From NCBI GenBank assembly GCA_964459995.1, contig CAYWOR010000001.1, positions 79,496 through 143,495 of the forward strand: a stretch of DNA of 64,000 bases, given 5' to 3'. Within the stretch, counting starts at the first letter, position 1, and the number at the start of each line of letters is the position of its first letter. Source of the DNA: an uncultured bacterium. GTDB lineage: Bacteria > UBP14 > UBA6098. Shown here in pieces: positions 1,058 to 51,354 of this stretch. The notes under the pieces are model-generated. The model was not told where the DNA came from. It worked only from the letters and a program-made list of their open reading frames with translations, and ran no database searches. Made by a program: the position numbers and the translations under genes.

Positions 1058-1058
1058 G

Positions 1059-2357: not shown

Positions 2358-2359
2358 AA

Positions 2360-4156: not shown

Positions 4157-4192
4157 GATGATGAATCTCCAGGGACGGGTTTACCGAAAATG

Positions 4193-5452
4193 TTACTCCG
4201 GTTTCGGGTTATCGTTTTCCGGTTCCTTTTGAATCAAGATAGGCGCTTGGATTATTTTCGAGTTGAAAAAAACAATCTCTCTGTTGTCATCGGTTACAAT
4301 CCTCGTCCACACAATGCCTATCATATCGACTTTGCCTTCGATTTCGTCGATTCGAATTTTATCGCCGATCTTGATTTTGCGTGCGAGCAACATCGCCAAC
4401 CCCGCGAAAATTCCCGAGATGTATGGCAGAGCCGATATTCCGATGAAAACCCCTGCCAAAAGGAAAAGCCCGAAAGCGAGATATTCCCCCGGTCCCGGAA
4501 TAACCGCAACAAGTGCGATTACGAAGGACATTACGATAAGAGCCTTGAAAAGCCTTTTCAGGGGGGATATTGCGGCGTCGGGAATTCGTGTCGAGTTTGG
4601 GTTTTCCTCATAATGGCGAAAAATCATATCCACAATCGCCCATAGAATTCTTGCGGCGAGATAGAGGAAGAATCCGGCCACTGCGAATTTGAGAAGGTCG
4701 AAAAGTATGCCGACCAGCTTTTTCAGCCAATCGAGGCTTGTCGAAAGCAACATTTGCGAATACTGCTGTGTCGCAGGGAATAGTGTGAAGAAAACGTATA
4801 TCATCGCATACATCGCAAATGCGATAATGACCCATTTGAGTATCAGCAGGAATTTAAGAATGATGCTTACCTCGAGGCGCGCGGGGATTATCACCATTTT
4901 GCCGATGCTGATTCCGCGAAAACTCACGCCTTCGCGCTGAACCACCGATTTGGAGGTTTTGCGGAATAGCTTGTCGATGAGATAATACAAAATCAGCACG
5001 AGGAAGGGAAAAAGCACTCCCAGCGCGAGTTTGGCGAGGTTGTCGAAGCTAAGGGAGCGCTGACGTTCCGTGGAAATGCCCTTGCGGATTTCCCAATACC
5101 AGTGGTTAGCGAGTGTTGACAGGTCTTTTCCGGTGCCTGCAGTGTCCGCCGGAAGAACATCAATAACCTTAAGGGTTCTGCCGGATTTGCCGTTGAGTTT
5201 GCCGTGATAGACGATTGAAAAGATGCTGTCTTTTTGTTCAATGCGGAGTGAGTCCAGCTCGCCGTCGCGGTCGGTCATAATGTCCGCAATGGCGCGAGAG
5301 GCGATAGATGCCCTTTGTGTGGGCGAAAGGTTACCTTCGGGGCTGTTCAGGCAGAAGAGGACTGTCTGTCCGATTCGAACGCATGAATCGGATTCCGCTC
5401 CGAAAGCGGTTATTACTGCTATTAAAACTAAGACGAAAATTCTAATTCTCAT
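4193..5452 (-). CDS. MscS-family mechanosensitive ion channel
   Basis: N-terminal signal, multiple TM helices, C-terminal MscS-like GDKIRIDEIEGKVDMIGIVWTRIVTDDNREIVFFNSKII. Confidence 0.7.
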   Translation of the reverse strand: MRIRIFVLVLIAVITAFGAESDSCVRIGQTVLFCLNSPEGNLSPTQRASIASRAIADIMTDRDGELDSLRIEQKDSIFSIVYHGKLNGKSGRTLKVIDVLPADTAGTGKDLSTLANHWYWEIRKGISTERQRSLSFDNLAKLALGVLFPFLVLILYYLIDKLFRKTSKSVVQREGVSFRGISIGKMVIIPARLEVSIILKFLLILKWVIIAFAMYAMIYVFFTLFPATQQYSQMLLSTSLDWLKKLVGILFDLLKFAVAGFFLYLAARILWAIVDMIFRHYEENPNSTRIPDAAISPLKRLFKALIVMSFVIALVAVIPGPGEYLAFGLFLLAGVFIGISALPYISGIFAGLAMLLARKIKIGDKIRIDEIEGKVDMIGIVWTRIVTDDNREIVFFNSKIIQAPILIQKEPENDNPKPE

Positions 5453-5595
5453 TAATACTCCTCGAATAATTATAAAAAATAGGCCTTCACAAGGCCGATG
5501 TCAATCTATAATATTGAACCGAATGTTTCATCGGAGAGTCGCGGACACAATTTAATCTCTTGACCGTCAAGGTTCTATCTATATTTTACAAGGTT

Positions 5596-7152
5596 ATGTT
5601 AGTCGATTCGCATGCACATATCGATTTTCCGCATTTCGCCACAGACCGCGCCGAAATGATTGACCGGGCATGGGAAAGCGGTGTCCGCACGATAATAATC
5701 CCCGGCGTGGAACGCGAAAGCAATCTGCGTAGCGTGGAGATTGCGGAAAAATATCCCCATGTTTGGTTCTCCACCGGATGGCATCCCCACGACGCCGACA
5801 AACTGGACATGAGCCTTTTGTCGAGGCTCGCGGGGCATCCGAAATGTGTGGCGGTCGGCGAAATCGGTCTCGATTATTACCGCGACCTTTCCCCTCGGGA
5901 TGTTCAGGAGAAGGCTTTCCGAAAGCAAATCGAGTTTGCCGTGCATAAAAACATGCCGGTGATAATTCATATTCGGGACGCTTGGGAGGATGCGATACGC
6001 ATTCTCGGCGATTACGACTGTCTTCGCGGGGTTTTCCACGCCTTCTCGGGTGCGGAAACCGAGCTTGAGTGGGCGAAGGCGCATGGTTATTATATCGGGT
6101 TGGGCGGGCCGGTTACTTTCGACAATTTCAAAAAAGGCGATGTTGTCGCGAAAATGCCGCCGGAACATATTCTGACTGAAACCGACTGCCCCTATCTTGC
6201 GCCGCAGTCATGCAGGGGCAAGCGTAATGACCCCGCCCATATTCGTGAAATTCTCGCGAAATGCGCAGAGTTTATGAAAATCGACGAGAAAAAACTCGAA
6301 GCGCAGGTCGAAAGAAATGTCGTCGAGCTTTTTAGAATCCCTCTGCCGCAATATTCGAATCATCCTGAGGCCGCAAAAAAGTCCTTCTCTCAAAACTTCC
6401 TTACCGATAAAAACATGGCGCGTAAAATCTCGGAAACAGCGGGCGTCGCCGATGTTTGTGTCGAGATTGGCGCGGGAAACGGCGAATTGACCCGCTTTCT
6501 GAAGGAGAATTTCACCCGAATTTATGCTATCGAACCGGACTGGGATAGAATCGAGAATCTTTTTCGCGAGGTTCCCGATGCTGTGATAATCCCCAAAAAG
6601 TTGCAAGAAGTAGATTTGCGGGGCATTGAAATTTTTGAGGGGAGAAAAGTAGCGGTGGTTGGCAATCTTCCCTATGGCGAGACATCCCCGATTCTTTTCG
6701 ATTTGCTCGATAATCGGACTGCTATCCTTCGAATGACCGTAATGACTCAAAAAGAATTCGCGCAGAGGCTTTGTGCGAACCCTGGGTCGAAGGATTATGG
6801 CATACCTTCGGTGCTTTTTTCCGCCTTTTTTTCGATTATCGAGGAATTCGATATTCCGCGCAGATGTTTCAAACCTTCGCCGGATGTCGAATCGACCCTT
6901 TTGACATTAACAGGGCTCGAAAAGCCATTTATCGAGGATTATGAATTCGATGCATTTAAAAAGGTTGTGAAATCGGCCTTTGCACATCGGAGGAAAACAA
7001 TCGCAAACTCTCTTCAGCACGAACTTTCCGGCGTTGATGTAAAATTGCTTCTCGAAAAGGCTGGAATCGAGCCGTCTTCCCGCGCGGAGCAGATTCCGGT
7101 GGAAACATTCGCGAGGTTGACGCGAGCTTATATAGAAGGCGGCAAAGCCTGA
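5596..7152 (+). CDS. Fusion protein: TatD-family metal-dependent hydrolase (N-terminal) plus 16S rRNA dimethyladenosine transferase RsmA/KsgA (C-terminal)
   Basis: N-terminal MLVDSHAHIDF and GEIGLDYY TatD motifs; C-terminal KKSFSQNFLTD, VEIGAGNGELT (SAM binding), GNLPYGETSPI (NLPY catalytic motif) in one uninterrupted frame. ATG 5596 preferred over TTG 5560. Confidence 0.75.
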   Translation: MLVDSHAHIDFPHFATDRAEMIDRAWESGVRTIIIPGVERESNLRSVEIAEKYPHVWFSTGWHPHDADKLDMSLLSRLAGHPKCVAVGEIGLDYYRDLSPRDVQEKAFRKQIEFAVHKNMPVIIHIRDAWEDAIRILGDYDCLRGVFHAFSGAETELEWAKAHGYYIGLGGPVTFDNFKKGDVVAKMPPEHILTETDCPYLAPQSCRGKRNDPAHIREILAKCAEFMKIDEKKLEAQVERNVVELFRIPLPQYSNHPEAAKKSFSQNFLTDKNMARKISETAGVADVCVEIGAGNGELTRFLKENFTRIYAIEPDWDRIENLFREVPDAVIIPKKLQEVDLRGIEIFEGRKVAVVGNLPYGETSPILFDLLDNRTAILRMTVMTQKEFAQRLCANPGSKDYGIPSVLFSAFFSIIEEFDIPRRCFKPSPDVESTLLTLTGLEKPFIEDYEFDAFKKVVKSAFAHRRKTIANSLQHELSGVDVKLLLEKAGIEPSSRAEQIPVETFARLTRAYIEGGKA

Positions 7153-8354
7153 TGGAAATCATTATCGCCCTTGTAATTCCGATATTTTTAATATGGTGGA
7201 TTCTCGAATATCGCCGCCACAAGGTCAATGTCGAGAGAGTGCCTATTCGGATTCATGTCAACGGCACACGCGGGAAATCCTCAGTAACGCGGCTTATTGC
7301 GGGTGCGTTGCGGGAGGCCGGTATTAAAACTGTCGCGAAAACCACAGGAACTCTTCCGCAGTTTATTTTCGAAGACGGCACCGAGGAACCAATTGTCCGT
7401 CTCGGCCCGCCGAATATTCAGGAGCAGGTGGGGATTATACGCCGTGCCGCTAATATGGGTGTCGATGCGATCGTGCTCGAGTGTATGGCGCTTCAGCCCG
7501 ATTATCAGGAGCTTTCCGAGCGGAAGATTGTCAGAAGCACGATTGGAGTAATCACCAATGCCCGCCCCGACCATCTGGAGGTTATGGGTCCGACCGAGCT
7601 GGATGTCGCGGATGCGCTTTCTGGAACGATTCCGCCCGGAGGCATATGCTTTACCGCCGAGCGCACAAGATTCGACCGATTGCGCAAGAACGCCGAGGAA
7701 TTGAGTGCCCGAATCGTTCAATCCGACCCCGCGATTGTAACAGCTGAGGAAATGGCGGGTTTTAGCTATGTCGAGCATCGCGAAAATGTCGCGTTGGTTC
7801 TCGAGATAACAAAGCATCTCGAAATTCCCCGTGATGTTGCTTTGAGAGGTATGTATAAGGCCGCGCCCGATTTGGGTGCGCTTTTCGTGTATGAGATAGA
7901 TTTTTTCGGCAAAAGACCGGTTTTCTATAATGGTTTCGCGGCAAACGACCCGGAATCGACCTCGGCTTTATGGGGACTTCTCGGTCTCGACCCGGATAAG
8001 AACAATCCGGTTATCGTTCTCGCGAACAATCGTGCGGACAGGTCGAGCCGGACTGTTCAGCTGGCGTCGATGTTGGTAAATCAGGTCAAGGCTGATTATA
8101 TCGTTCTCGTCGGCACAAACACGAAGCTTCTTTGGGAGGAACTTGGCCGAATGGGTATGGAGATGGCCATGGTTGTGGATATGGGCGAAGAAGAGGTGGA
8201 GGATATTTTCGAGAAGTGTATGGAACTCACCCCTGGCCGAAGCAGAATAATCGGTGTCGGGAATATCGGCGGTATAGGACGTGAGCTTGTTTATTATTTC
8301 GAAGCGCGCGCCCTTCCGAAACTCCGTCACGACGACTCAGCGGACGGGGTTTGA
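7152..8354 (+). CDS. pgsB: Poly-gamma-glutamate synthase PgsB/CapB (Mur-ligase-like amide ligase)
   Basis: N-terminal TM helix then NGTRGKSSVTRL, GPPNIQEQ, ECMALQPDYQ, IGVITNARPDHLEVMGPT, NGFAANDPEST, NNRADRSSRTVQ, GVGNIGG: matches the PgsB/CapB pattern as I recall it. Start overlaps tatD-rsmA stop by 1 nt. Confidence 0.8.
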   Translation: MEIIIALVIPIFLIWWILEYRRHKVNVERVPIRIHVNGTRGKSSVTRLIAGALREAGIKTVAKTTGTLPQFIFEDGTEEPIVRLGPPNIQEQVGIIRRAANMGVDAIVLECMALQPDYQELSERKIVRSTIGVITNARPDHLEVMGPTELDVADALSGTIPPGGICFTAERTRFDRLRKNAEELSARIVQSDPAIVTAEEMAGFSYVEHRENVALVLEITKHLEIPRDVALRGMYKAAPDLGALFVYEIDFFGKRPVFYNGFAANDPESTSALWGLLGLDPDKNNPVIVLANNRADRSSRTVQLASMLVNQVKADYIVLVGTNTKLLWEELGRMGMEMAMVVDMGEEEVEDIFEKCMELTPGRSRIIGVGNIGGIGRELVYYFEARALPKLRHDDSADGV

Positions 8355-8633
8355 AGAGATGAAATTCTTGTTTTTGGATGAATCGGACGACATGGGAATA
8401 TGTCGGACAGTTGTGTTATTTTTCGTAAGGTAGATAGAGATGAGCAAGAGTCGATTCGCGGGTTCCAAGAAAAATTTTAGGAACAGACTCCTTGCGGGGG
8501 CTGACGGTTCTAGGCCAGCTGGGCGAGCTATATACCTCGTTTTCAAGGCGAGAGATTGTCTTCGCTTTTAAGTTAATTATATTAGTAAAGTGATTATGTC
8601 AATAGTAAAAATATTGATCTGTAAGGATAAACT

Positions 8634-9101
8634 ATGCTTTGGTTATCTGTTGGAATTGGATTAGCGCTCTCGCTGGTTTTCGCGGAGTGGTTCGGGCTGG
8701 CGGCGGGAGGGCTGGTGGTGCCGGGGTATATCGCCCTATTCTGGAACGACCCTATGAAGATTGTCGGCACGATTACAATCGCTATGGCGGCATTCGGCAC
8801 GGTGAAGGTCGCAAGCTCATACACGATACTCTACGGACGGAGAAAGCTCGTTCTTACTGTGCTCGTGGCCTTTGTTTATGCATGGATTTTCCGCTTCATA
8901 ATGGGTGCAGGGGCGGTTGGAGCGCTCGGTTCTTTCGACCCTATCGGGTTTATTATTCCCGGCCTTCTCGGTTATTGGATGGATAGGCAGGGTATTCTCG
9001 AAACGCTTTCCACGATGGTAATCGCCAGTGTTATTGTCCGTTTGATTCTTATTATGGTGAATGGAGGTGACCTCCTTGAAGTGGCGCTCCCGACGAGTTA
9101 G
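8634..9101 (+). CDS. pgsC: Poly-gamma-glutamate biosynthesis membrane protein PgsC/CapC
   Basis: 155 aa polytopic membrane protein; FAEWFGLAAGGLVVPGY, ILYGRRK, GFIIPGL match recalled PgsC signatures. Confidence 0.8.
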   Translation: MLWLSVGIGLALSLVFAEWFGLAAGGLVVPGYIALFWNDPMKIVGTITIAMAAFGTVKVASSYTILYGRRKLVLTVLVAFVYAWIFRFIMGAGAVGALGSFDPIGFIIPGLLGYWMDRQGILETLSTMVIASVIVRLILIMVNGGDLLEVALPTS

Positions 9102-10194
9102 TTTAGGCGCTCTTATCCTGCTTGCGGGGCTTGGAATAGCGGCTATGGCCGTTGTCGAGTTCTCGAAAATCAGGGTAAACAAGAGCTATTACGAAGAGAA
9201 AGTAATCGCGAGTCAGCTTGCTTTTCGTGCCGCCGAGGTTGTTCGTTCCTCGAAAATAGGCGTGCAGATTGTGATCGATCCTATTGCAGACCGCAATGCG
9301 ACAGGTCTTATCGGCGATCAATTCACGATTATCACTACCGACCGCGGAAGTCTTACGGCGAAGCTCACAACGACGAATCCGAACTGGGCGGCAGTAATTG
9401 TCGATATGCTTCACGAAGCTGGGGTGGAAGCCGGCGATAAGGTCGCTGTCGGATACACCGGATCGATGCCGGCATTAAATATAGCCGCACTTGCCGCAAT
9501 ACAGACAATCGGTGCCGAGCCGGTGATTATTTCCAGCGTTGGCGCATCTATGTGGGGTGCGAATAATCCCGAGTTCGCATGGCTGGATATCGAAACACTG
9601 CTTTATGAAAAGGGTATTTTCAGATATCGAAGTGTTGCTTCGACGCTTGGTGGGCGAGGAGATGTCGGCGGCAATGTTTCCCCTGAGGGAAGGGCGATTC
9701 TTCGCGCGATTATCGAACGCAACGGTGTCGAGAAAATCGAAGAACCCACTCTCGATGCCAACATCAAAAGGCGTGTGGAGATTTATAAATCGCATCTCAC
9801 AGAAGGCGAAAAATATGCCGCATATATCAATATCGGCGGCGGCCTCGGGTCGATTGGAAGCACACAAAACCTCGTCCCAATCAAACCGGGGGTCAATAAA
9901 CGTATTCCCGATGCAAATTATCCTCTTCGAGGCGCGATGATCCATATCGGCGCGATGGGGACGCCGATTATCAATCTTACCGACGTCTCAATTCTCGCTA
10001 ACCGATATGGGTTGCCTATCGCTCCCGAACCATTGCCCGATATTCCCCATGGCGATGTCTATTTCGAGAACCGCTATCGGATGCATCTTGTTATTCCGGC
10101 GTTCATTATATATATCGCCCTTGTTTTTGCAGTCATAAGAATCGATCTCAATACGATCCTTTTCGGACGAAAAAAGAAATCCTCGCAGTCGTAA
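9061..10194 (+). CDS. Putative poly-gamma-glutamate system protein (third component of the locus; not PgsA/CapA-like)
   Basis: 377 aa with N- and C-terminal TM segments; overlaps pgsC by 41 nt (alternative TTG start at 9076 gives MKWRSRRVSLGALILLAGLGIAAMA). Lacks CapA metallophosphatase motifs; family assignment is by locus position and recollection of a PgsB/PgsC-associated family. Confidence 0.4.
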   Translation: MEVTSLKWRSRRVSLGALILLAGLGIAAMAVVEFSKIRVNKSYYEEKVIASQLAFRAAEVVRSSKIGVQIVIDPIADRNATGLIGDQFTIITTDRGSLTAKLTTTNPNWAAVIVDMLHEAGVEAGDKVAVGYTGSMPALNIAALAAIQTIGAEPVIISSVGASMWGANNPEFAWLDIETLLYEKGIFRYRSVASTLGGRGDVGGNVSPEGRAILRAIIERNGVEKIEEPTLDANIKRRVEIYKSHLTEGEKYAAYINIGGGLGSIGSTQNLVPIKPGVNKRIPDANYPLRGAMIHIGAMGTPIINLTDVSILANRYGLPIAPEPLPDIPHGDVYFENRYRMHLVIPAFIIYIALVFAVIRIDLNTILFGRKKKSSQS

Positions 10195-10195
10195 A

Positions 10196-10328
10196 ATTGG
10201 GGCGTCGCGCGGCCATAGGCCGCATAGGATAGCCGGAAATATTTTCCGGCTATCCTATGCCTTCTTCGCGGGAGCTTTCGGAAAATGTTTTTCCGAAAGC
10301 TTTTGCGAAGAAGGCGCGACGCCCCAAT
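10196..10328. repeat. 133-nt element of nested perfect inverted repeats (outer 15-bp stem, two internal hairpins of 18 and 13 bp, inner 9-bp stem)
   Basis: Outer arms attggggcgtcgcgc (10196-10210) and gcgcgacgccccaat (10314-10328); hairpin 1 gcataggatagccggaaa-tat-tttccggctatcctatgc (10222-10260); inner stem cttcttcgc (10261-10269) with gcgaagaag (10305-10313); hairpin 2 agctttcggaaaa-tgt-ttttccgaaagct (10273-10301). All stems are exact reverse complements. Confidence 0.5.
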
Positions 10329-10573
10329 GTTTGCATATCCGCTAAATTTTCCTTGCCATTACAAGTTATTTCAATATAATCATGCGCAATGGCCTCGAAG
10401 GCCTTAACTAAATTTCTTAATCGCTTGATATGCAACGTGTTGAGAAAAATATCGACAGAGACCTCGGCTACCGCAACCATGTCTTCGGCGGCCCAGGTGG
10501 CACTTTTTGCTAAACCAGCAAATATTCCCCTATCATTTTATTAAATAACGACTTACCAATTGGAGGTCCAGAT

Positions 10574-11911
10574 ATGAGAAAACTTTCAAGGGCGGAAGTT
10601 GCCGCTATTAATGCTAATAATGTTCATGAGGTTTTGGGCACGGTGATGCTTGCCGACGGAATGGATATGGTTGTAGATCTCGATAAATCACAGGGGCAGA
10701 TGCTCTACGATGCAAAAGCGCAAAAGCCTTATCTCGATTTCTTCAGCTATTTCGCGAGCAATCCGATTGGCCATAATCATCCCAAAATGACAACACCGGA
10801 ATTTATCGAGCTTATGGGCAAAATCGCTGTTCATAATCCCTCGAATTCCGATCTTTATTCTGTCGAAATGGCGAAATTCGTTGCGACTTTCGCACGTGTG
10901 GCGATGCCGGAAAGTATGAATTATCTATTTTTGGTCGCTGGCGGAGGGTTAGCTGTCGAAAACGCTCTCAAGGCGGCTATGGACTGGAAAGTCCGTAAAA
11001 ATGTCGCGGCTGGCAAAGGCGAAATTGGAACAAAAGTGCTTCATTTCGAGAACTCCTTCCACGGCAGAACCGGATATACCATTTCTCTGACAAACACCGC
11101 AGATCCGCGCAAATATATGTTCTTCGCGAAATTCGATTGGCCCAGAGTTCCCGCACCCTATTGCGAGTTCCCGCTCGAAGGCGCTAATTTCGACACTACA
11201 ATCGATAGAGAAAATGTCTCGTTAGAAATGATCGAAGACATTCTAAAGAAAGACGCCGACAATATCTGCTGTATAATCATCGAGCCGATTCAGGCAGAGG
11301 GCGGCGATAATCATTTTCGTAAAGAATACCTTCTCGCGCTGAAAAATCTTTGCCTGAAGTATGACATCCTGCTGGTTTTCGACGAGGTTCAGACCGGCAT
11401 GGGTCTAACTGGCGCGATGTGGGCATGGCAGAAAATCGGTGTAGAACCGGACATCCTCAGTTTCGGGAAAAAGGCGCAGGTGTGTGGTATTATTGCAGGA
11501 TCGAGAATCGACGAGGTTGAAAAGAACGTTTTCCATGAATCGAGCAGAATCAATTCGACATGGGGCGGAAACCTTGCTGATATGGTCCGTTGCAGGAAAT
11601 ATCTCGAAATTATCGAAGAGGAAAATCTCGTCGAAAACGCCGACAAAATGGGTAAACTTCTTCTCAATGGTCTTCTCGAAATCCAGAGAAAACACCCGAA
11701 GGTGTCAAATGCCCGCGGTTCGGGGCTTATGTGCGCTTTCGATCTGCCGGATTCGTCATGCAGAAACGGTTTCATTGAAACATGCATGGAAAAAGGCATG
11801 ATGGTTCTGCCATGCGGGACAAAATCCATACGTTTCCGGCCGAGCCTGAATGTCGAAAAGGAGCATATCGAACGCGCTATCGCCATAATCGACAGCGTTC
11901 TAAGCGAATAG
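10574..11911 (+). CDS. lat: Class III aminotransferase, L-lysine 6-aminotransferase (Lat) family
   Basis: NSDLYSVEMAKFVATFARV, ENALKAAMDWKVRKN, FHGRTGYTISLTNT, EPIQAEGGDNHFR, FDEVQTGMGLTG, FGKKAQVCG (PLP lysine), STWGGNL; GGAGG RBS upstream. Confidence 0.7.
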   Translation: MRKLSRAEVAAINANNVHEVLGTVMLADGMDMVVDLDKSQGQMLYDAKAQKPYLDFFSYFASNPIGHNHPKMTTPEFIELMGKIAVHNPSNSDLYSVEMAKFVATFARVAMPESMNYLFLVAGGGLAVENALKAAMDWKVRKNVAAGKGEIGTKVLHFENSFHGRTGYTISLTNTADPRKYMFFAKFDWPRVPAPYCEFPLEGANFDTTIDRENVSLEMIEDILKKDADNICCIIIEPIQAEGGDNHFRKEYLLALKNLCLKYDILLVFDEVQTGMGLTGAMWAWQKIGVEPDILSFGKKAQVCGIIAGSRIDEVEKNVFHESSRINSTWGGNLADMVRCRKYLEIIEEENLVENADKMGKLLLNGLLEIQRKHPKVSNARGSGLMCAFDLPDSSCRNGFIETCMEKGMMVLPCGTKSIRFRPSLNVEKEHIERAIAIIDSVLSE

Positions 11912-11935
11912 CAAAACAATTAATTCGGATTACCC

Positions 11936-11967
11936 AAAAGGGCGGTTCTAATGCCGCCCTTTTTTTA
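11936..11967 (+). terminator. Rho-independent terminator after lat
   Basis: aaaagGGCGGttctaatgCCGCCCttttttt: 6-bp GC stem, 8-nt loop, 7-T run, about 25 nt after the lat stop. Confidence 0.6.
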
Positions 11968-12040
11968 ATGTTGCTTTATCAGTTCCATTAAGCTAAAATA
12001 TATTGATTTGATATTCAATATCGACACTCGGAGTTTCGGA

Positions 12041-12439
12041 ATGAAAAAAATTATCCTGCTAATCATCATCGTCGGCGGAATCTATCTGCTATATAACCAC
12101 TTCATCGCCGAACCCCGCCAACAGCTTCATGAAGAGACCGCTAATCTTTCCGAGGCCGCACTCAGAGCAAGACAAAACGAAGCTCGTCAGCTTCTGCGAA
12201 TAGCCTACCAAAAGCAACAGTCCTACCACGCTCAGCACGGTAAATACACGAAGAATCTCGACGATCTGAAAGTCCAGACTCGCGGAACCTTCTACAAACT
12301 CGAAAGCAAAAGCGCTACTTTTACAAATTTCGAGATTAGGGCTATTGGCAACATCGACAACGACGGCATTCTCGATGTTTGGGTTGTCGATCAGAATGGA
12401 AATCCGTATAATCTTGTTGACGATGTAAAGAAGAATTGA
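12041..12439 (+). CDS. Small membrane-anchored hypothetical protein (pilin-body-like, no prepilin cleavage motif)
   Basis: MKKIILLIIIVGGIYLLYNHF signal anchor; ATG 12041 with upstream GGAG; stop 9 nt before the cyclase gene. Confidence 0.4.
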   Translation: MKKIILLIIIVGGIYLLYNHFIAEPRQQLHEETANLSEAALRARQNEARQLLRIAYQKQQSYHAQHGKYTKNLDDLKVQTRGTFYKLESKSATFTNFEIRAIGNIDNDGILDVWVVDQNGNPYNLVDDVKKN

Positions 12440-12448
12440 CGATTCGAA

Positions 12449-15412
12449 ATGTCCTCGAAAGGCGACTTAGAAAAATTCGATAACCCCAAAATCGCCCGAG
12501 CGATAGCATCGTTTATTCCCAATCAGGTTCTCTCGCGCGTTGTCCGGAACCCCGAAAAACTCGATAGGGTTGGCGAAAGACGCACAGTTACCGCAATGTT
12601 CGTCGATATTGCGGGTTTCACGTCTTTCTGCGAAAACCGTGATGCCGAAGAGGTTATGCTTCTGCTAAACAGGCTTTTCTCATCGATTCTCGAACCGGTC
12701 GAAAAATTTTCCGGCGAAGTAGATAAATTCATGGGGGATGCCGCAGTCATAATTTTCGGCGCGCCGGTGGCTCATGAGGATGATCCACAAAGAGCGCTCG
12801 CCTCAGCGCTGGAAATAATGGCGCGGATTCAAGAATTTCAAGGGTTGCAGGTTTCTATCGGAATAAATACCGGCGAGGTTGTCGCGGGAATCGTCGGCAA
12901 CGACAACCACCGCGAATACACAGTCATCGGCGACGCCGTAAACACCGCTTCGAGACTCCAAAGCGCCGCCGAGGCCGGCGAAATCCTTGTCGGAAAGGAA
13001 ACTGTGCGGTTGGCAGGAAAAGGATTCCTTTTCGGCGAGGCTCGCAAGCTCGATCTCAAGGGCAAATCGCACCCGATAGAGGCTTTTCCCCTTCGTGGAA
13101 TCTCAATCGAGGAAAAAAAAACTTCATCGGACTGTATAATCGGGCGTGAAAGAGAGCTGTCGGCTGTAAATGCTGTAATCGATGGCACAGCGAAATCCGC
13201 GGCGATAATCGGACCCGCTGGAACAGGCAAAACAACCCTGATTAACCGTATCACAGACGAAGCCATCTCCAAAGGCTATCGCCTAATAGATATTTCCGCG
13301 ATAACATGGGCGGAGAATATCCCATACGCGTCGGTTCAACGCTTAGTTCGCGATATTCTCGGCGCTGACCCGCTTAAAAAACTTCGGAAACTCCTTCCAA
13401 AAAGTGCCGACCTTTTCCCACTGCTCTCAGGATTATTGGGTGCGGAAATTCCCGGAAGAGGGCGGGTGGAATATCTTTCGCCGGAAGAAAAACGAAAAGC
13501 CCTTCAGAGTTTGATTTATGAAATTCTCTCGACCGAGGGGCACAAATCCCCAATATTTCTTGTTTGCGACGGAATAGAAAATCTCGATCCCTCCACCGCG
13601 GAACTTCTCGAAATGGCAATTTCGAACCGCGAATTTCCAGTTGTTATAGCGGGCAGAAACTTCGGAGCGATTTCATCGGCTGTCGATTTTGTTGTCGAGC
13701 TGAAAGCCCTTTCCAAAAAGGATTCTAGTCCTTTGATACGCGATATTCTCGGCGCGGAAAAGATCGGTGCGAATCTTCTTTCGGCGGTTTATAACGAAAC
13801 CGGCGGCAACCCGGGCTGGATAAAAGAGCTTTTGACCCTTATCTCGGAACGGGGCGGCATAACAATCGACAAAGGCGTCCACAGGCTGTCCTCAGCTATC
13901 GAGGGCAAACTGCCGAAGGGCATCGACGGCATCTACACCGCCCGTATCGACGCTTTCCCGCCGGATGCAAGGGAGACTTTGCGCGTCCTTTCCGTGCTTG
14001 GACAGGAATTTCCGAAGGATCTCCCTGAAGAGCTTCTCGATCCATCGATTTACCGGAGCGGAGGCCGAAATCTTGTCGAAATAGGCGTTTTGAGAGACCT
14101 TGGCGAGAAATATCGTTTTGAGTCCGTGCCGCTGATGAAGGCCGCCTATCATTCGCTTTTCCAATCCGTTAGAAAAAAGCTCCATAAATCAGCCGGCGAA
14201 ACAATCGAAAAACGTTTCGCTGACAAACTCGAAGAGCGTTACGAAGAGCTTGCACGGCATTTTCGCCTCGGCGAAGACCCCCGTAAGGCTTTCGTCTATC
14301 AGAACCTCTCCGGACACAAACAGGAAAAGAGTTTCGCGAATCTTGAAGCCTTGCATTATTACAATGAGGCGTTGAGCATCGAAGACGCCGATGCCATCCG
14401 ATGGGGCATTTGGCGAGAACTTCTCGGAACTATCGAAGCCGCGGGAAGGCTGTATTGGTATTCCGGCGATTTGGAAAAGGTCGTCGAGCTGAATGAACGT
14501 GCGAAATCCCTCGCGGAGCAAACCGGCGAAACAGTGATGATCAGCGACGCCGTTAACAGAATAGCCCTCGCATTTCAGGAAATGGGGCGGTTCGACGAGG
14601 CTGGCGAGCTTTATGAGAACCTTCTCGAAATGCTCGGTTCAGTCGAGGGGCAAAAGGAGCGGCTTCTTCAGGCGATGGCGAACTACGGCACCCTTCTTTC
14701 CGACCTCGGCAAGCTCGACAAGGCACGTGCGCTTTATATACGCGGTCTCGATCTTGCCGATGCCGAAACTGTCTCGGCAGGAGCCGCAAATTTACTTGGC
14801 AACCTCGGTTGGCTCGAAGCCCGAATGGAGAATTTCGATGCCGCAGTGGAGAACCTTCAAAAAGCCGGCGAGATAGACGAAAAGCTTGGAAATCTTCGCG
14901 GGCAAGCGATTAACTTGGTGAATCTCGCGCAGATTTTCCGCGCAAGAGATATGAAAACCGAGGAAATTGAAGCCTATAATCGAGCGTATCAAATTTTTGT
15001 AAGCATCGGCGATAGACGCGGGGAAGCGCTCTGCCTATCGAATCTCGGGGACACATCGCGAGAGACTGGTGATATCGAAAAAGCGAAATCGCTTCACCGC
15101 AAAGCTCTTAAGCTTGCCACCCAATTGCGCGACAATATGCGAATTGTCGATGCAAATTTGGGCCTCGCTTTGGATTATTTTGCCGAGGGCGAGGTTAAAT
15201 CTGCCGTCCGACGCGCAAAAACTGCCCTTCATATCAGCATAGAATGTGGCGATTGGGAGGGGCAAATCGAGACCGGAATAGCGTTATTGAATTTTTATAA
15301 CTATCTTCGAGACGAAAAATCCTTTGAAAAACTGTCGAAACAACTTCGGAAAATCATAGAAAACAACAATCCGGCCGCTATTTCGCGGCTTCCAAAAAAG
15401 GAAAAAGGCTGA
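12449..15412 (+). CDS. Class III adenylate/guanylate cyclase domain fused to STAND-type P-loop NTPase and C-terminal TPR repeats
   Basis: Cyclase motifs FVDIAGFTSF, KFMGDAAVIIFGAP, GINTGEVVAGIVG, YTVIGDAVNTASRLQS; Walker A GPAGTGKTT; TPR-like C-terminal half. 987 aa. Confidence 0.8.
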   Translation: MSSKGDLEKFDNPKIARAIASFIPNQVLSRVVRNPEKLDRVGERRTVTAMFVDIAGFTSFCENRDAEEVMLLLNRLFSSILEPVEKFSGEVDKFMGDAAVIIFGAPVAHEDDPQRALASALEIMARIQEFQGLQVSIGINTGEVVAGIVGNDNHREYTVIGDAVNTASRLQSAAEAGEILVGKETVRLAGKGFLFGEARKLDLKGKSHPIEAFPLRGISIEEKKTSSDCIIGRERELSAVNAVIDGTAKSAAIIGPAGTGKTTLINRITDEAISKGYRLIDISAITWAENIPYASVQRLVRDILGADPLKKLRKLLPKSADLFPLLSGLLGAEIPGRGRVEYLSPEEKRKALQSLIYEILSTEGHKSPIFLVCDGIENLDPSTAELLEMAISNREFPVVIAGRNFGAISSAVDFVVELKALSKKDSSPLIRDILGAEKIGANLLSAVYNETGGNPGWIKELLTLISERGGITIDKGVHRLSSAIEGKLPKGIDGIYTARIDAFPPDARETLRVLSVLGQEFPKDLPEELLDPSIYRSGGRNLVEIGVLRDLGEKYRFESVPLMKAAYHSLFQSVRKKLHKSAGETIEKRFADKLEERYEELARHFRLGEDPRKAFVYQNLSGHKQEKSFANLEALHYYNEALSIEDADAIRWGIWRELLGTIEAAGRLYWYSGDLEKVVELNERAKSLAEQTGETVMISDAVNRIALAFQEMGRFDEAGELYENLLEMLGSVEGQKERLLQAMANYGTLLSDLGKLDKARALYIRGLDLADAETVSAGAANLLGNLGWLEARMENFDAAVENLQKAGEIDEKLGNLRGQAINLVNLAQIFRARDMKTEEIEAYNRAYQIFVSIGDRRGEALCLSNLGDTSRETGDIEKAKSLHRKALKLATQLRDNMRIVDANLGLALDYFAEGEVKSAVRRAKTALHISIECGDWEGQIETGIALLNFYNYLRDEKSFEKLSKQLRKIIENNNPAAISRLPKKEKG

Positions 15413-15426
15413 AGGAGGACGATATT

Positions 15427-17280
15427 ATGAAGAAGATGTCGATTTTGGTATTTATCACCCTAATGCTTACCCTGACAGTATTTGCGCAGAGATGGGAGCA
15501 TATCGGCCCTGTTACCGAAAAATTTATCACGGTGAAGGTTCATCCGGATTTTCCCGATACGATTTTCGCAGTGCAGGAGGGGCACTCGGAGCCTTCGCAC
15601 ACGCTTTGGGTTTCGCCCGACCGTGGCGAATCATGGGAGAGAATAGGCGAATACAAAGGTGTCTCGCTTCATCCATCCTCACCGGAAACTCTATTGGTGA
15701 GCCTCGGAATTGGTTCCTTCTCCGATGGTATTTACAAAAGCAGAGACATGGGCAGAAGTATCGAGCCTGAAGCGCTGACATACATGTATTTCGCTTCCGG
15801 TGCGTATTACGACCCCACCGACCCCCGATGCATCTATTGCTGGGGGCAGGGGCTTGTTTACACGCGCGACAGCGGAATTTTATGGGATAGGCCATCTTTC
15901 CCTTCGATTCCCATGAATTATTGGGGAGTTATCATAGACCCGATGGAGAATAGCAATGTTTGGGCATGGACGAACACCGGTTTGGTAATACATTCGCGCG
16001 ATTACGGCGGCGATTGGCCATATATGGAGGGTTATCCGGACGATGTCGCGCCTAACGATATGGCTGTATCTCCCATCGATTTGGAATATGTCTATATGGC
16101 TAATTGGAACGGGATTTCGAGAAGCCGCGATTATGGCGCAAGTTGGGAGGATTTCAGAATGCCATCACAGCCCACGAGCTGTGTTTGGGTTTCCGAGCAT
16201 GATCCTGAATCTATAATCTTCGGCGGCGCGTATGGAGTTTTTAAATCATCCAATGGCGGCGAGACATACGATTTAGTCGGCGATTCTCTCGAATATGAAG
16301 TCCTCGACATCGAGGTAATTCCCTATGGCGGCGGATATCGAATTTACGCCGCGACATCGCGCAACGGCATTATGTTCGCCGAGACAAGCCCATTCTCAAC
16401 AGGGCCGATGATTTCCGGCGCATGGCCGCCCAACGGCAAATGGGTGTCTTTGGAGGATTTCGATGTCAGAATCAAAATTCAGGACCCGGACGGTGTGGAT
16501 GAGTCCTCGATCGTCTTCGAGGTAAACGGCACAGCATACACAACCGCGGACCCGGAGCTTTCTTTCGAGGACACGGTTTTAATTTTCACAGGGCATTTCG
16601 ATGACGGCTCAAATGTCGAGTGCGAGCTTATCTCCGCCGAGGACGCGCTGGGGAATCCATCGAGTGTTCTGCCCTACAATTGGCTCTTCAAAATCGACAG
16701 AACACCGCCACGCGCGACATATATCAACCCGCATCCCGACGACACTGTCTCCGCGACACCGTTTCTTTTCAAGATGCATCTTATCGACGAACGTAGCGGC
16801 CTGAAACTGCCATCCTTCGTCGCGACTTTCAACTCCGTGACAGTCTATTCGAGTTGTATGTCATTTCTCTTCGATGCCGACACGGTTCTTATCGACTTAA
16901 ATGCCGCGGGTCTTACACTCGAAGAGGGTTTGACTATCGAGGTCGGCATCTATGCCGAGGACTCGGTTGAAATTGGTGATGCCAATGCTCTCGACGATGA
17001 ATGGGTTTTCTATGTTGCGAGTGCGGGGATAGGCTACCGCGAACTTCCGCTTTCGCAGAGGCTTCGAATCTCACCGAATCCTTTTAATGCGGCTTGCAGA
17101 ATCGAAACACCTGAAGAATATCGTATTTATGATGCATCGGGCAAGCTAATAATCGAGCGAAAGGCAATGGAACGCAAGGTTTGGGACGGATGTAACGATA
17201 TTGGTATGCCGGTGCCATCTGGGATATATTTTATCCAGACCTCCGGCGGCGAAAGAGCGCGGATTATACTTCTGCGATAG
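15427..17280 (+). CDS. Secreted BNR/Asp-box repeat beta-propeller protein with T9SS-type C-terminal sorting domain
   Basis: Signal peptide MKKMSILVFITLMLTLTVFA; repeated SxDxGxxW-like boxes (SPDRGESW, SRDMGRS, TRDSGILW, SRDYGGDW, SRDYGASW); C-terminus ISPNPFNAACRI...SGIYFIQ typical of T9SS-type sorting domains. Confidence 0.6.
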   Translation: MKKMSILVFITLMLTLTVFAQRWEHIGPVTEKFITVKVHPDFPDTIFAVQEGHSEPSHTLWVSPDRGESWERIGEYKGVSLHPSSPETLLVSLGIGSFSDGIYKSRDMGRSIEPEALTYMYFASGAYYDPTDPRCIYCWGQGLVYTRDSGILWDRPSFPSIPMNYWGVIIDPMENSNVWAWTNTGLVIHSRDYGGDWPYMEGYPDDVAPNDMAVSPIDLEYVYMANWNGISRSRDYGASWEDFRMPSQPTSCVWVSEHDPESIIFGGAYGVFKSSNGGETYDLVGDSLEYEVLDIEVIPYGGGYRIYAATSRNGIMFAETSPFSTGPMISGAWPPNGKWVSLEDFDVRIKIQDPDGVDESSIVFEVNGTAYTTADPELSFEDTVLIFTGHFDDGSNVECELISAEDALGNPSSVLPYNWLFKIDRTPPRATYINPHPDDTVSATPFLFKMHLIDERSGLKLPSFVATFNSVTVYSSCMSFLFDADTVLIDLNAAGLTLEEGLTIEVGIYAEDSVEIGDANALDDEWVFYVASAGIGYRELPLSQRLRISPNPFNAACRIETPEEYRIYDASGKLIIERKAMERKVWDGCNDIGMPVPSGIYFIQTSGGERARIILLR

Positions 17281-18259
17281 TGCGCGCCCAGCGTTCGGCG
17301 AGTTCGATTGCGGCTTTCATGCTACTTGGATCGGCGACATCTTTTCCTGCGATAAGAAAAGCTGTGCCATGGTCGGGGCTGGTGCGGATAATTGGCAGGC
17401 CGAGGGTGGCATTGACACCCTTCTCGAAAGCTATCATCTTGAAGGGTATTAAAACCTGATCGTGAAACATGCCGATAAGCACATCGTAAACAGATCTGAT
17501 TTGCCACAAAAATGCTGTGTCTGGCACAATCGGCCCCGACACATTATAGCCGCGCCCCGAAGCGATAGTCATTCCCTCGACAATTCTCGTCTCCTCATCG
17601 CCCATTATCCCGGACTCGCCGCCGTGCGGATTAAGCGCTAAAACTCCAACGCGCGGCTCTTCGATGCCCTCGAATTTTTTCAGCGCGTCCGAGGTAATCG
17701 CGATCGTTTCGGCGATGAGTTCCGGTGTAACAGCTTTAGGAACATCGCGCAACGCAATATGCCGCGTCGCCGGCACGACCCTGTTCTCCCCCGCGATGAA
17801 TGCCATCACAACGCGGGGAACACTCGCTAAATCCTGCAGAATCTCAGTGTGTCCCGGAAAATCATGCCCGGCCATCTGAATCGCCGCTTTCGACAAAGGA
17901 GCTGTAACCAGAGCATCCGCGCGCCCCTCCATACATTCACGCGCGGCCGTAATAAGCGAGCGAAAAGCAAATTCCCCACCGACGGGCGTCGGGGTTCCGA
18001 AAGGAACAGAGCCGCAGAGTTTCGGTGCACCAAGAAACTCTATCTCCGCCCCCGAATTTTCCTCTCTAATAGAAGCTAATTCCATAATCTCTGCGGCCCA
18101 TCCGTAACGACGGCCAAGTTCGGCGTAAAATTTGGGTTCGCAAGCGAGGATAAAGTGAATGGGCATCTCGCGAAGTGCGAGAACCGCTTTGGCCGTCGTT
18201 TCGGATCCGACGCCCGCGGGATCGCCGAGACTAATTGCGATACGGATTTTTCCGGTCAT
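17264..18259 (-). CDS. pdxA: 4-hydroxythreonine-4-phosphate dehydrogenase PdxA
   Basis: MTGKIRIAISLGDPAGVG start; GHTE, NPHGGE motifs; ATG overlaps stop of upstream gene (ATGA). Longer ORF to 18583 rejected (328-nt overlap). Confidence 0.8.
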   Translation of the reverse strand: MTGKIRIAISLGDPAGVGSETTAKAVLALREMPIHFILACEPKFYAELGRRYGWAAEIMELASIREENSGAEIEFLGAPKLCGSVPFGTPTPVGGEFAFRSLITAARECMEGRADALVTAPLSKAAIQMAGHDFPGHTEILQDLASVPRVVMAFIAGENRVVPATRHIALRDVPKAVTPELIAETIAITSDALKKFEGIEEPRVGVLALNPHGGESGIMGDEETRIVEGMTIASGRGYNVSGPIVPDTAFLWQIRSVYDVLIGMFHDQVLIPFKMIAFEKGVNATLGLPIIRTSPDHGTAFLIAGKDVADPSSMKAAIELAERWARTIAEV

Positions 18260-44276: not shown

Positions 44277-44369
44277 ATATTCTGGAAATTTAAATATCCG
44301 GTGAGTAGGTTCAAAACTTAACCGCCAATCGTGAGGGCGACGCCCCCCTTTCGCGCAGACGACTTTCGA

Positions 44370-50281: not shown

Positions 50282-50372
50282 ATGTCTTATATTTATTTAT
50301 GCAAATAATACGAATAATTTGGTCTGTGTCAATGCGTCGAATCTTCGTTAGTGCACCCCCTCCGGGCGCCGT

Positions 50373-50517
50373 GCCGATTTTATGTCCGAATTTTGCCAAA
50401 ATTCGGCCATAAAATCGGCTGGGGCAAATCGGCTTTCGAGCGGGCGAAAGGTTCTTTTTAGCCGAGAATTTTTATGCGGAAGGAGAATTTTAGCTTTGCA
50501 TTAGGCCGATTTGCCCC
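50373..50517. repeat. Cluster of inverted repeats built on GCCGATTT/AAATCGGC
   Basis: 46-nt near-perfect palindrome gccgattttatgtccgaattttg/caaaattcggccataaaatcggc (50373-50419, one mismatch) followed by ggggcaaatcggc (50421-50433) and its exact complement gccgatttgcccc (50505-50517); four copies of the 8-mer in about 145 nt. Confidence 0.45.
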
Positions 50518-50592
50518 GCACGACCCCATTTTCAGATGAGGAGCGAGACTTCGGAAAAAAAGAGGGTTCAAAATTTGGAAATTCGAGTCTTA

Positions 50593-51354
50593 TCAAAAAG
50601 AGGGGTCGTGCACGGCGCCCGGATTTGCGAGCAATTTGCGAATCTCCGCAAGATCTTCCGGTGTGTCGATACCGATAAGCGATTTGGCGGCAGGTATTTC
50701 GATGCAATGAATTTTGAAACCGTTTTCGAGGGCGCGGAGCTGTTCGAGCTTTTCGGCAAATTCTAAGGGGGAGGGGGGAAGTTTCGCAAAAAGTGCGAGA
50801 AAATCGGGGCGATAGGCGTATATGCCGATATGTTTGAAGAAAACAGGGCGATAATCACCTGCGACAAAGGGGATTCCGGCGCGGCTGAAATAGAGGGCAT
50901 TGGAGTTTGAATCGACAACCGCTTTCACTGTCGATGGGGTTTGAAGGTCATGCTCATCAGCAGGGGTTATAATTGTGGCCATCGGAGCGGAACATTCCCT
51001 CAGAGCGGATATAAGATCGCCAAGAATAGAAGGCGTCAACAAAGGCTCATCGCCTTGGATGTTCAGGACAAAATCGGGGCGATCTTCATTGGGTATCGAT
51101 TCGACAGCCTCGAAAACCCTGTCGGAGCCGCTTTTGCAGTTCGGCGATGTCATTATTACCTCTGCGCCGAAAGATTCCGCTGAAGTTCTAATTCTCTCGT
51201 CATCGGTTGCGATAATCACGCGCTCTATTTCGGATGTTAATTTCGCGGCCTCCCAAACCCATTGTAACATCGGCTTGCCGGCGATATCCGCGAGCGCTTT
51301 CCCCGGAAGCCTTGTCGAACAATAACGAGCCGGAATTATCGCGAAAATCCTCAT
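50593..51354 (-). CDS. kdsB: 3-deoxy-manno-octulosonate cytidylyltransferase (CMP-KDO synthetase)
   Basis: MRIFAIIPARYCSTRLPGKAL, NIQGDEP motifs; 253 aa. Confidence 0.85.
   Translation of the reverse strand: MRIFAIIPARYCSTRLPGKALADIAGKPMLQWVWEAAKLTSEIERVIIATDDERIRTSAESFGAEVIMTSPNCKSGSDRVFEAVESIPNEDRPDFVLNIQGDEPLLTPSILGDLISALRECSAPMATIITPADEHDLQTPSTVKAVVDSNSNALYFSRAGIPFVAGDYRPVFFKHIGIYAYRPDFLALFAKLPPSPLEFAEKLEQLRALENGFKIHCIEIPAAKSLIGIDTPEDLAEIRKLLANPGAVHDPSF

Follow-up and report, generated by a model that had tools for sequence, protein, structure and literature searches.

Within a 64,000-nucleotide (nt) stretch of the genome of an uncultured Zixibacteria-like bacterium (contig CAYWOR010000001.1; the whole stretch is hereafter called the window), we analysed an element of nested palindromes at positions 10196-10328 (copy 1), located between the poly-gamma-glutamate (pgs) locus and lat, and a second element at 50361-50623 (copy 2), located behind kdsB. 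Together with a third element found in a relative (copy 3), they make up a small family of structured elements at gene ends, specific to this lineage, of which we found no description in Rfam or in the searched literature. Each complete copy is predicted to fold as a four-way junction, closed by a helix whose core sequence is common to the three loci. Judged largely from patterns of sequence change, the best fit to these elements is a structured single-stranded nucleic acid, most likely RNA. We favour, with a probability of roughly 45 %, the reading that the copies act at the RNA level as a gene-end element that would terminate, insulate or stabilise the transcript, its palindromes being renewed by template switching.

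The source-genome sequence covered amounted to ~74 kb (i.e. the 64-kb window and its flanks) and that of relatives to ~150 kb. Related lineages were represented by L004, L016, L018 and L019 at the pgs-lat locus and by L204, L205, L206 and L207 at the kdsB locus; homologs of the flanking protein assign the source organism to Zixibacteria-like bacteria of the Fibrobacteres-Chlorobi-Bacteroidetes (FCB) group. A genome-contig scan with a flanking protein found one syntenic relative, which did not carry the element. The copy 1 locus was recovered in independent assemblies from ENA, NCBI (GCA_030153525.1), Logan and JGI, and four strain-level copies of copy 1 were identical but for one single-nucleotide polymorphism, located in the hairpin loop of arm 2. 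As the independent assemblies and the strain-level copies agree, copy 1 is no assembly artefact.

Architecture and stability of copy 1

The 133 nt of copy 1 form a four-way junction in which a 15-bp closing helix surrounds a mini-hairpin, an 18-bp hairpin and a 9+13-bp hairpin. An earlier sequence-only reading of the window had reported nested perfect palindromes at 10196-10328 with stems of 15, 18, 9 and 13 bp, and all four stems were recovered exactly there; the mini-hairpin at 10211-10221, which completes the four-way junction, had been overlooked. Pairing of ATTGGGGCGTCGCGC with GCGCGACGCCCCAAT is perfect over 15 bp and extends to 18 nt if one mismatch is allowed. The halves of arm 2 (10222-10239 and 10243-10260) are separated by a loop of 3 nt. 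The lower stem of arm 3 counts 9 bp, or 11 bp with the shared GC, and between its two stems GGG stands opposite TTT, i.e. three G-U wobbles in plus-strand RNA. Copy 1 of the window is without large loops. No T-run was found on its 3' side, where direct reading of the flank (AATGTTTGCAT) bears out what had been noted from the sequence alone.

The plus-strand RNA fold of copy 1 reached -112.7 kcal/mol, against -47.4 +/- 4.2 kcal/mol for shuffled sequences (z = -15.6, none of 200 shuffles being as good), and the minus-strand RNA fold -102.5 kcal/mol. With DNA parameters the fold was worth -70.2 kcal/mol (z = -14.9). Copy 1 was the strongest structure of the whole window in a sliding 140-nt scan, where it lay more than 8 standard deviations off the mean. 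When the intergenic spacers of the window were compared, the outliers were the pgs-lat spacer (z ~-11) and the spacer at 50.3-50.6 kb (z ~-5.7), the sole further outlier (17281-18255, z ~-6) being mis-assigned coding sequence of pdxA.

A closing helix shared by three loci

Copies 1, 2 and 3 have in common the closing-helix core GGGCGYCGNG/CNCGRCGCCC and the four-way architecture. Their arms are mutually unrelated in sequence, so that only the 10-12 nt of the closing helix are shared. Written as the 11-nt motif GGGCGYCGNGC, which was defined from the very copy 1 and copy 2 sequences searched, the core had exact matches in the window at the four arms of copies 1 and 2 only. The probability of a chance likeness between two GC-rich closing stems was estimated at ~0.02. 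Independent support for the family came from the L206 ortholog of copy 2, which carries GGGGCGTCGCGC, identical to the arm of copy 1 in the window.

The closing helix of copy 2 is 13 bp long (50361-50373 and 50611-50623, i.e. TCCGGGCGCCGTG and CACGGCGCCCGGA) and encloses three arms, named Ha, Hb and Hc in the orientation of kdsB. The looser palindromic cluster that the sequence-only reading had placed at 50373-50517 is thus real and bears the same closing helix, but it extends over 50361-50623.

Copy 3 was found by a motif-pair scan of ~227 kb of the clade, at 17065-17264 of L204, between convergent PTS-EIIA and ftsX genes; it also folds as a four-way junction (-106.6 kcal/mol, z = -9.1). Across the clade loci 10 motif pairs were seen, against 0.43 in block shuffles (shuffle maximum 2). 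The minimum-energy fold was a four-way junction in all seven complete copies examined, and in copy 3 likewise. In the window, the orthologous spacer holds a lone closing-helix arm (44335-44349), which is probably a remnant of copy 3. At the same site, the spacer of L206 (18194-18950) is ~750 nt long and very rich in AT, and holds a called open reading frame (ORF) of 43 aa, and L207 has a 204-nt spacer without the element. The density in the source genome is therefore two copies and one remnant in ~74 kb: the 10-kb extension beyond the window held zero additional copies, and the three arm sequences of copy 1 had no second match in the window at <=3 mismatches.

Searches were also made among metagenome and viral contigs. 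The 61 matches of the two-arm motif on viral contigs were rejected as chance, these contigs having a mean GC content of 68 % and no nested palindromes. With a refined two-arm pattern including an A/T run, the metagenome-contig matches listed were mostly high-GC chance matches; among them, a few contigs of 40-51 % GC carried the terminal motif (L182, L132, L166, L181, L141, L096/L119 and L153/L165), as single long hairpins or inverted repeats that are candidate relatives of the family at most. On three unrelated contigs of 44-47 % GC (L132:464-602, L166:2681-2793 and L181, minus strand, ~317-460), the inverted repeats start with GGGCGCCGGGC; L182 and L141 carry GGGCGTCGCGC, the same as copy 1, and the repeats of L166 and L181 also sit between a stop codon and the following gene. 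These repeats may represent a wider family or a selection effect of the search pattern.

Two further kinds of structure were set aside. Inside the genuine coding sequence of pdxA (17984-18215, minus strand), the motif pair GGGCGTCGG / CCGACGCCC closes a four-way fold with perfect 12-bp and 11-bp stems (z ~-5 to -6), confined to the window species and missing from both L016 and L018; it is not a family member, and probably a codon coincidence or a lineage-specific oddity. Other long hairpins were seen in relatives, at L004:2783-2899 (z = -9.6), L016:6546-6628 (z = -5.7) and L004:5055-5132. They are single stem-loops from which the closing helix is absent, and were likewise not assigned to the family.

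Conservation and covariation across lineages

Copy 1 occupies the same site in L016 and L019, whose flanking protein is 82 % and 75 % identical, respectively, and is missing in L004 (81 %) and L018 (80 %), where the pgs-lat spacer measures 265 and 274 nt, against 379-502 nt in the carriers. The most distant lineage, L019, carries copy 1, so that the pattern can be put down to loss just as well as to gain. Of the 11 stem positions at which the window and L016 disagree, 10 make up 5 compensatory pairs (two of them in arm 2 and two in arm 3) and 1 breaks a pair. RNAalifold applied to a raw, uncurated MAFFT alignment of copy 1 returned the same junction with 4 compensatory pairs. In L019, an unrelated perfect hairpin of 21-23 bp replaces the mini-hairpin, and the loop of arm 2 is ~90 nt longer.

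Copy 2 was present in all five lineages sampled, in which KdsB is 60-82 % identical. In a curated stems-only alignment of four lineages, 6 pairs had changed on both sides, a number that none of 500 shuffles reached and that compares with 0-2 in slid controls; over copies 1 and 2, compensatory base-pair changes total 11. The folding and covariance analysis that the sequence-only reading had proposed thus yielded a strong fold, the same junction from RNAalifold and no Rfam family. Further copies and conservation in relatives, whose absence, along with that of a transcript signal, that reading had associated with a chance palindrome or an atypical terminator, were both found.

The stems of copy 2 are 73-95 % identical between lineages with KdsB 60-65 % identical (95 % between the window and L204), whereas the loops inside the same arms resemble each other at the level of shuffled sequence. 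The Ha and Hb loops keep a length of 66-74 nt, a loop of 33 nt being the single exception, despite this saturation. The Hb stem varies by at most one base per arm over four lineages, and two adjacent compensatory pairs (AA/TT to GG/CC) were seen in arm Hb of L206. Each of the four complete copies compared, i.e. those of the window, L204, L206 and L207, has a perfect hairpin of its own as arm Hc. The motif TYCGG/CCGRA is present in the last arm of seven of the eight copies, the exception being copy 3 in L204. On these alignments, the stems appear to be under purifying selection, because arm-to-arm copying cannot hold stems identical between species while the loops saturate.

Single-stranded nucleic acid and strand

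Three features support a single-stranded form, i.e. the compensatory changes, the conserved helices around big non-palindromic loops, and the strand-specific G-poor loops. The conserved helices close non-palindromic loops of 33-74 nt (mostly 66-74 nt) and the closing helix encloses 103-240 nt; extrusion from duplex DNA is excluded for these helices because such spacers are far too long. In copy 2, the loops of Ha and Hb contain 7-18 % G and 18-33 % C and, read on the sense strand of kdsB, are poor in G throughout the five lineages (79 G vs 174 C in total), the kdsB coding sequence having fractions of 0.23 G and 0.28 C for comparison. In copy 1, the wobbles of arm 3 read as G-U on the plus (sense) strand, which favours sense RNA. 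Of the forms that had been offered from the sequence alone, a stable structured RNA is hence the most likely fit, and a cruciform in duplex DNA is disfavoured as the main mode, since the closing helix and two arms of copy 2 have overlong spacers.

Genomic context

Every copy has its 5' arm 0-22 nt past a stop codon, or else has it entered by the reading frame. The gene before copy 1 (9061-10194) encodes a poly-gamma-glutamate system protein (TIGR04332) and comes after a Mur-ligase-like pgsB and a CapC-like gene, and the gene behind it (10574-11911) is lat, encoding L-lysine 6-transaminase (LAT_fam, 628 bits); these matches agree with the labels previously proposed for both sides. At the second locus, the kdsB stop codon (50593-50595) falls inside arm Ha. 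KdsB of the window has 253 aa, the final ~9 codons (PGAVHDPSF) coming from the 5' arm and first hairpin of copy 2 (50596-50625, minus strand). The frame enters copy 2 by 9-11 codons in three lineages (253-255 aa), and stops exactly at the copy 2 arm in L204 and L206 (244 aa).

The families of copies 1 and 2 end 24-33 nt before a -35 box, and copy 3 has convergent genes on its two sides. In the window, the best promoter-like match of the region stands behind copy 1, and likewise behind copy 2; both copies flank capsule or envelope genes. The match behind copy 1 is alignable in relatives, precedes a small ORF and lat, and is a putative promoter of both. The match behind copy 2 precedes a molybdopterin-oxidoreductase gene (49613-50281, minus strand), and by direct reading -35 boxes were also seen past copy 2 in L204 and L207 (TTGACA, ~30-33 nt) and in L206 (TTGCCA, ~25 nt). 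The organism also uses ordinary terminators, since a hairpin followed by a T-run was found after lat. Coordinates of all these features are given in Table 1.

Table 1. Coordinates of the elements and of adjoining signals in the window
Feature	Position	Strand	Description
TAA stop of the gene at 9061-10194 (poly-gamma-glutamate system)	10192..10194	+	1 nt before the 5' arm of copy 1
Copy 1, closing helix, 5' arm	10196..10210	+	ATTGGGGCGTCGCGC; holds the family core GGGCGYCGNG
Copy 1, arm 1	10211..10221	+	Mini-hairpin GGCC-ATA-GGCC
Copy 1, arm 2	10222..10260	+	Perfect 18-bp hairpin, tip CCGGAAATATTTTCCGG
Copy 1, arm 3	10259..10315	+	27-nt arms; lower stem, wobbles and 13-bp upper stem, tip TTCGGAAAATGTTTTTCCGAA
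Copy 1, closing helix, 3' arm	10314..10328	+	GCGCGACGCCCCAAT
Sigma-70-like match TTGCCA-16-TATAAT	10353..10380	+	11/12, best in 1-20000; 24 nt past copy 1
Textbook intrinsic terminator	11936-11963	+	25 nt past lat; 11-bp stem AAAAGGGCGG...CCGCCCTTTT, then T-run
Lone closing-helix arm	44335..44349	-	GGGGGGCGTCGCC; in the 93-nt ftsX / PTS-EIIA spacer, orthologous to L204 copy 3
Sigma-70-like match TTGACA-16-TATTAT	50305..50332	-	11/12; 28 nt past copy 2
Copy 2, complete	50361..50623	-	263 nt; sense orientation of kdsB (CMP-Kdo synthetase)
Copy 2, arm Hc	50373..50419	-	Last in kdsB orientation; near-perfect 23-bp hairpin
Copy 2, arm Hb	50421..50517	-	13-bp stem GGGGCAAATCGGC/GCCGATTTGCCCC, 71-nt G-poor loop
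Copy 2, arm Ha	50518..50611	-	First in kdsB orientation; stem GCACGACCCC/GGGGTCGTGC, 74-nt G-poor loop

Between the promoter match and lat lies a small ORF of 27 codons (MQRVEKNIDRDLGYRNHVFGGPGGTFC; 10430-10513, plus strand) with no NCBIfam match. It is kept in all five lineages (27-31 aa), with differences that are mostly synonymous, a pattern that makes a genuine small gene or leader peptide very likely. A 76-aa ORF called in public annotations (L001 and L003) at 10250-10480 on the minus strand was rejected as spurious: it runs backwards over the small ORF, the promoter match and a third of copy 1, and is not conserved, its longest equivalents in relatives reaching 22-52 aa. Elsewhere in the pgs region, pgsB and the CapC-like gene are 279 nt apart here (8355-8633, plus strand) vs 33 nt in L016 and L018, and the extra sequence is not structured (plus-strand fold -83 vs minus-strand -47 kcal/mol). 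At 5560-7152 (plus strand), a single ORF fuses a TatD-type DNase with RrnaAD (rRNA adenine dimethylase), and was kept in all fetched relatives.

Proposed mechanism

If the copies act at the RNA level, the element would be transcribed together with the gene upstream and form the 3' untranslated region of that message. The three arms would fold co-transcriptionally, and the closing helix would form once the last ribosome is off the stop codon, as a terminating ribosome would cover the 5' arm. The finished junction (~-90 to -140 kcal/mol) would then mark the end of the transcription unit, where it could act as a barrier to 3'-to-5' exonucleases and could stop or pause read-through ahead of the adjacent promoter. 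In copy 2, the two C-rich, G-poor loops of ~70 nt might serve in the manner of Rho loading sites, which they resemble, followed by a strong pause hairpin, and the perfect arms of 18-27 bp would be plausible substrates of RNase III. Template switching during replication would make or repair perfect inverted repeats in one step, and selection would retain the versions that fold.

Template switching is documented as a source of perfect stems and of multi-base compensatory changes in RNA stems (PMC8794818). Traits of this kind are found here, i.e. new perfect hairpins at fixed junction positions, adjacent multi-base changes, and the GGG vs AAA block of arm 3 in copy 1. Template switching explains the making of the palindromes, not the persistence of the scaffold.

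Transcription terminators and 3' retroregulators offer a functional comparison. Rho-dependent terminators consist of an unstructured, C-rich and G-poor rut region of ~70-80 nt followed by a pause site, and phage lambda sib is an RNase III site. Like terminators and retroregulators, the elements stand at the end of a transcription unit before the next promoter and hold very stable hairpins; copy 2 has two C-rich, G-poor loops of ~70 nt and then a strong hairpin, a layout that may correspond to that of Rho-dependent terminators, and RNase III might cut the long perfect duplexes as at lambda sib. Unlike intrinsic terminators, the elements have no U-tract, are multi-branched and 5-10 times larger, and conserve the sequence of their closing helix across loci. 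That copy 1 is no simple terminator, as suggested from the sequence alone, is borne out by the missing U-tract and the multi-branched fold. A consensus terminator scan reported neither the closing helix nor the 3'-most arm of either window element (3' flanks AATGTTTGC and GGAGGGGGT); its sole match at copy 2 falls within the Hb loop (50433-50450, plus strand), is antisense and equals the shuffle expectation.

Several observations weigh against a role as RNA-level gene-end element. Copy 1 is dispensable in L004 and L018, and the consensus scan found no recognisable terminator in its place in these two lineages; a canonical terminator suspected there by eye was accordingly dropped. No U-tract lies 3' of the copies, which rules out a canonical intrinsic terminator although the genome uses such terminators, and the Rho-site idea fails to span the family, because copy 1 of the window is without large loops. 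Total folding energy does not single out the sense strand consistently, which it favours for copy 1 in two of three lineages; for copy 2 it favours the antisense strand in four of four, as follows from the G-poor sense loops. G-U and A-C mismatches are about balanced in the conserved stems. Which strand is transcribed, where transcripts end and whether they are terminated here we deduce from the DNA. Finally, the helix sequences are kept beyond the needs of pairing, which hints at a specific binding partner that the gene-end model does not name.

An extended version of the model, which we hold to be doubtful, would supply that partner. The elements would then be an undescribed class of four-way-junction gene-end RNA and serve as transcription-unit punctuation in Zixibacteria; the closing helix would be read by a dedicated nuclease, termination factor or RNA chaperone, translation at the stop codon would gate its closure, and the arms would be remade freely by template switching. 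In favour of this version, the helix is conserved beyond pairing, the length and composition of the loops are kept without conservation of their sequence, and the same helix recurs at three loci.

Alternative explanations and comparison with known repeats

The sequence-only reading had also offered a repeat of the miniature inverted-repeat transposable element (MITE) or repetitive extragenic palindromic (REP) kind. In this form, the elements would be selfish or domesticated repeats, the closing helix being the terminal inverted repeat for a transposase encoded elsewhere, and the copies would have landed beside stop codons. What stands of it is that the copies are dispersed, share terminal inverted repeats only and have no coding capacity (the 76-aa ORF over copy 1 not being conserved). 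Their presence also varies, copy 1 being missing in two lineages and copy 3 being complete in L204 only with a lone arm in the window; the kdsB frame enters copy 2 in three lineages and stops at its arm in two; and, among the matches listed, several long inverted repeats on metagenome contigs of 40-51 % GC share the terminal motif. We nevertheless consider this explanation unlikely. By direct reading, none of the eight copies has flanking direct repeats, i.e. a consistent target-site duplication at its borders; near-identical copies are absent, the arms of the three loci being unrelated; and no transposase, integrase or reverse transcriptase gene occurs in the 64-kb window or the fetched flanks. 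The density is low (two copies and one remnant per ~74 kb). Above all, the copies are vertically inherited at orthologous sites over deep divergence, with compensatory changes and with stems far better conserved than loops, the opposite of decaying transposon ends. A mobile-element origin may go together with a present role at the RNA level.

In MITE families, copies are alike over their whole length and bear target-site duplications. The present elements are like MITEs in their size (100-300 nt), their dispersed intergenic position and their terminal inverted repeats (a closing helix of 9-15 bp in all copies), but unlike them in having no internal similarity between loci and in being orthologous copies with compensatory substitutions. 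As to insertion polymorphism, the four strain-level loci of copy 1 all carry the element. REP sequences are single imperfect palindromes of ~20-40 nt with a 5' GTAG, present in hundreds of whole-sequence copies and associated with REP-associated tyrosine transposases (RAYTs). In enterobacteria and pseudomonads, REPs and bacterial interspersed mosaic elements (BIMEs) block 3' exonucleases when located in 3' untranslated regions, and affect the upstream gene when located near its stop codon. Like them, our elements are extragenic, non-coding, clustered hairpins that follow stop codons between co-directional or convergent genes; unlike REPs, the family shares only a closing helix of 10-12 nt, its unit is a four-way junction of 130-260 nt, and its density is low. 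Of the marks of REPs, direct reading found no GTAG at the helix ends, and no RAYT/Y1 transposase was found among the window or flank genes. The Correia elements of Neisseria, the enterobacterial repetitive intergenic consensus/intergenic repeat units (ERIC/IRU) and the Rickettsia palindromic elements can alter reading frames and form stable RNA hairpins that are processed. Retron msr-msd regions provide another parallel, with a closing duplex of terminal repeats around short hairpins and one long near-perfect hairpin; unlike in retrons, no reverse transcriptase adjoins any copy, the downstream genes being lat, molybdopterin oxidoreductase and ftsX at three housekeeping loci. The elements are best classed with structured extragenic palindromes that act at the ends of genes, and we give the proposed mechanism somewhat less than an even chance.

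An independent structured RNA or ribonucleoprotein (RNP) scaffold would be a stable non-coding RNA, or a motif bound by a dedicated protein at its conserved closing helix, and would do more than end a transcript, e.g. signal processing or act in trans once freed from a 3' untranslated region. It would account for the helix conserved past pairing needs (95 % between the stems of the window and L204), for the identical closing helix of 10-12 nt at three unrelated loci, for loop lengths kept without sequence conservation and for TYCGG/CCGRA in the last arm of seven of eight copies. We regard it as distinctly unlikely. The 0-22 nt between stop codon and 5' arm leave no space for an own promoter, functional RNAs that fold seldom contain perfect duplexes of 18-27 bp, and copy 1 was lost from two lineages. 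With Rfam 15, only tRNA-Gln reached the gathering threshold in the window, and all matches on the elements were below it, the best being generic hairpin models, i.e. miRNA-precursor models scoring 21-31 bits against gathering thresholds of 73-100. A tRNA-like nature receives no support either, as ARAGORN and Rfam find only this tRNA-Gln (52898-52968) and the arms of the elements are 2-5 times longer than tRNA arms.

A structure at the DNA level, i.e. hairpins or cruciforms in supercoiled or single-stranded DNA upstream of a promoter that bind HU, IHF or gyrase, or a folded recombination site, ranks with the RNP scaffold or slightly behind it. Perfect hairpins with loops of 1-4 nt could extrude, the DNA fold is worth -70 kcal/mol, the elements end 24-33 nt before -35 boxes, and total folding energy favours neither strand consistently. 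A precedent exists in Porphyromonas gingivalis, where a 77-bp inverted repeat of the K-antigen capsule operon has been studied with the HU protein and its effect proposed to run via DNA or RNA structure and HU binding (PMC3969353). That repeat too is large and flanks a capsule-synthesis operon in the same superphylum, but it consists of one stem-loop and precedes the operon at its 5' end. A sequence relation is not expected. Against a DNA structure, the closing helix (spacer 103-240 nt), Ha and Hb cannot extrude, yet no other part is conserved as well and compensatory changes are found in them, and the G-poor composition of the loops is strand-specific. Among folded recombination sites, integron attC sites abut or overlap stop codons, conserve the ends of their palindrome in sequence and the interior in structure, and work as a folded single strand. 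The elements are like attC in all of these respects, i.e. in sitting at stop codons, in having ends conserved in sequence and an interior conserved as structure, and in the folded single strand that they would form. They are unlike it in having syntenic housekeeping neighbours and a four-way junction instead of a single bulged hairpin, with no array or integrase; direct reading of copy 1 found no core site RYYYAAC/GTTRRRY on either strand, and cassette arrays and integrase genes were absent from the window and flanks.

That the elements have no function, being neutral template-switch by-products in permissive spacers whose arms are kept palindromic by concerted evolution, is most improbable. 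In its favour, template switching needs no selection to yield perfect stems and paired multi-base changes (PMC8794818), unrelated perfect hairpins swap in at the same junction position between lineages, the arms of arm 3 in copy 1 differ by a three-base GGG/AAA block, copy 1 is dispensable in two lineages and a similar fold occurs inside the pdxA coding sequence of the window species only. Against it, arm-to-arm copying keeps complementarity within a genome and not identity between species, the stems are 73-95 % identical beside saturated loops, and architecture, closing helix, loop lengths and loop composition persist over five lineages and three loci.

Implications

For annotation, the family has an immediate consequence, as gene callers put a spurious 76-aa ORF over copy 1 and lengthen kdsB by 9-11 codons into copy 2. 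For evolution, it is a clear natural case of perfect hairpins arising, being exchanged and being retained, with conserved scaffold helices beside arms that each lineage has remade as fresh perfect palindromes; the template-switching model of stem evolution can thereby be put to a direct test in the intergenic DNA of bacteria. Should the elements act as RNA, a covariation-supported motif from an uncultured candidate phylum would join the short list of complex 3'-end elements, and some bacteria would mark the ends of their genes with multi-branched structures, not with simple hairpins.

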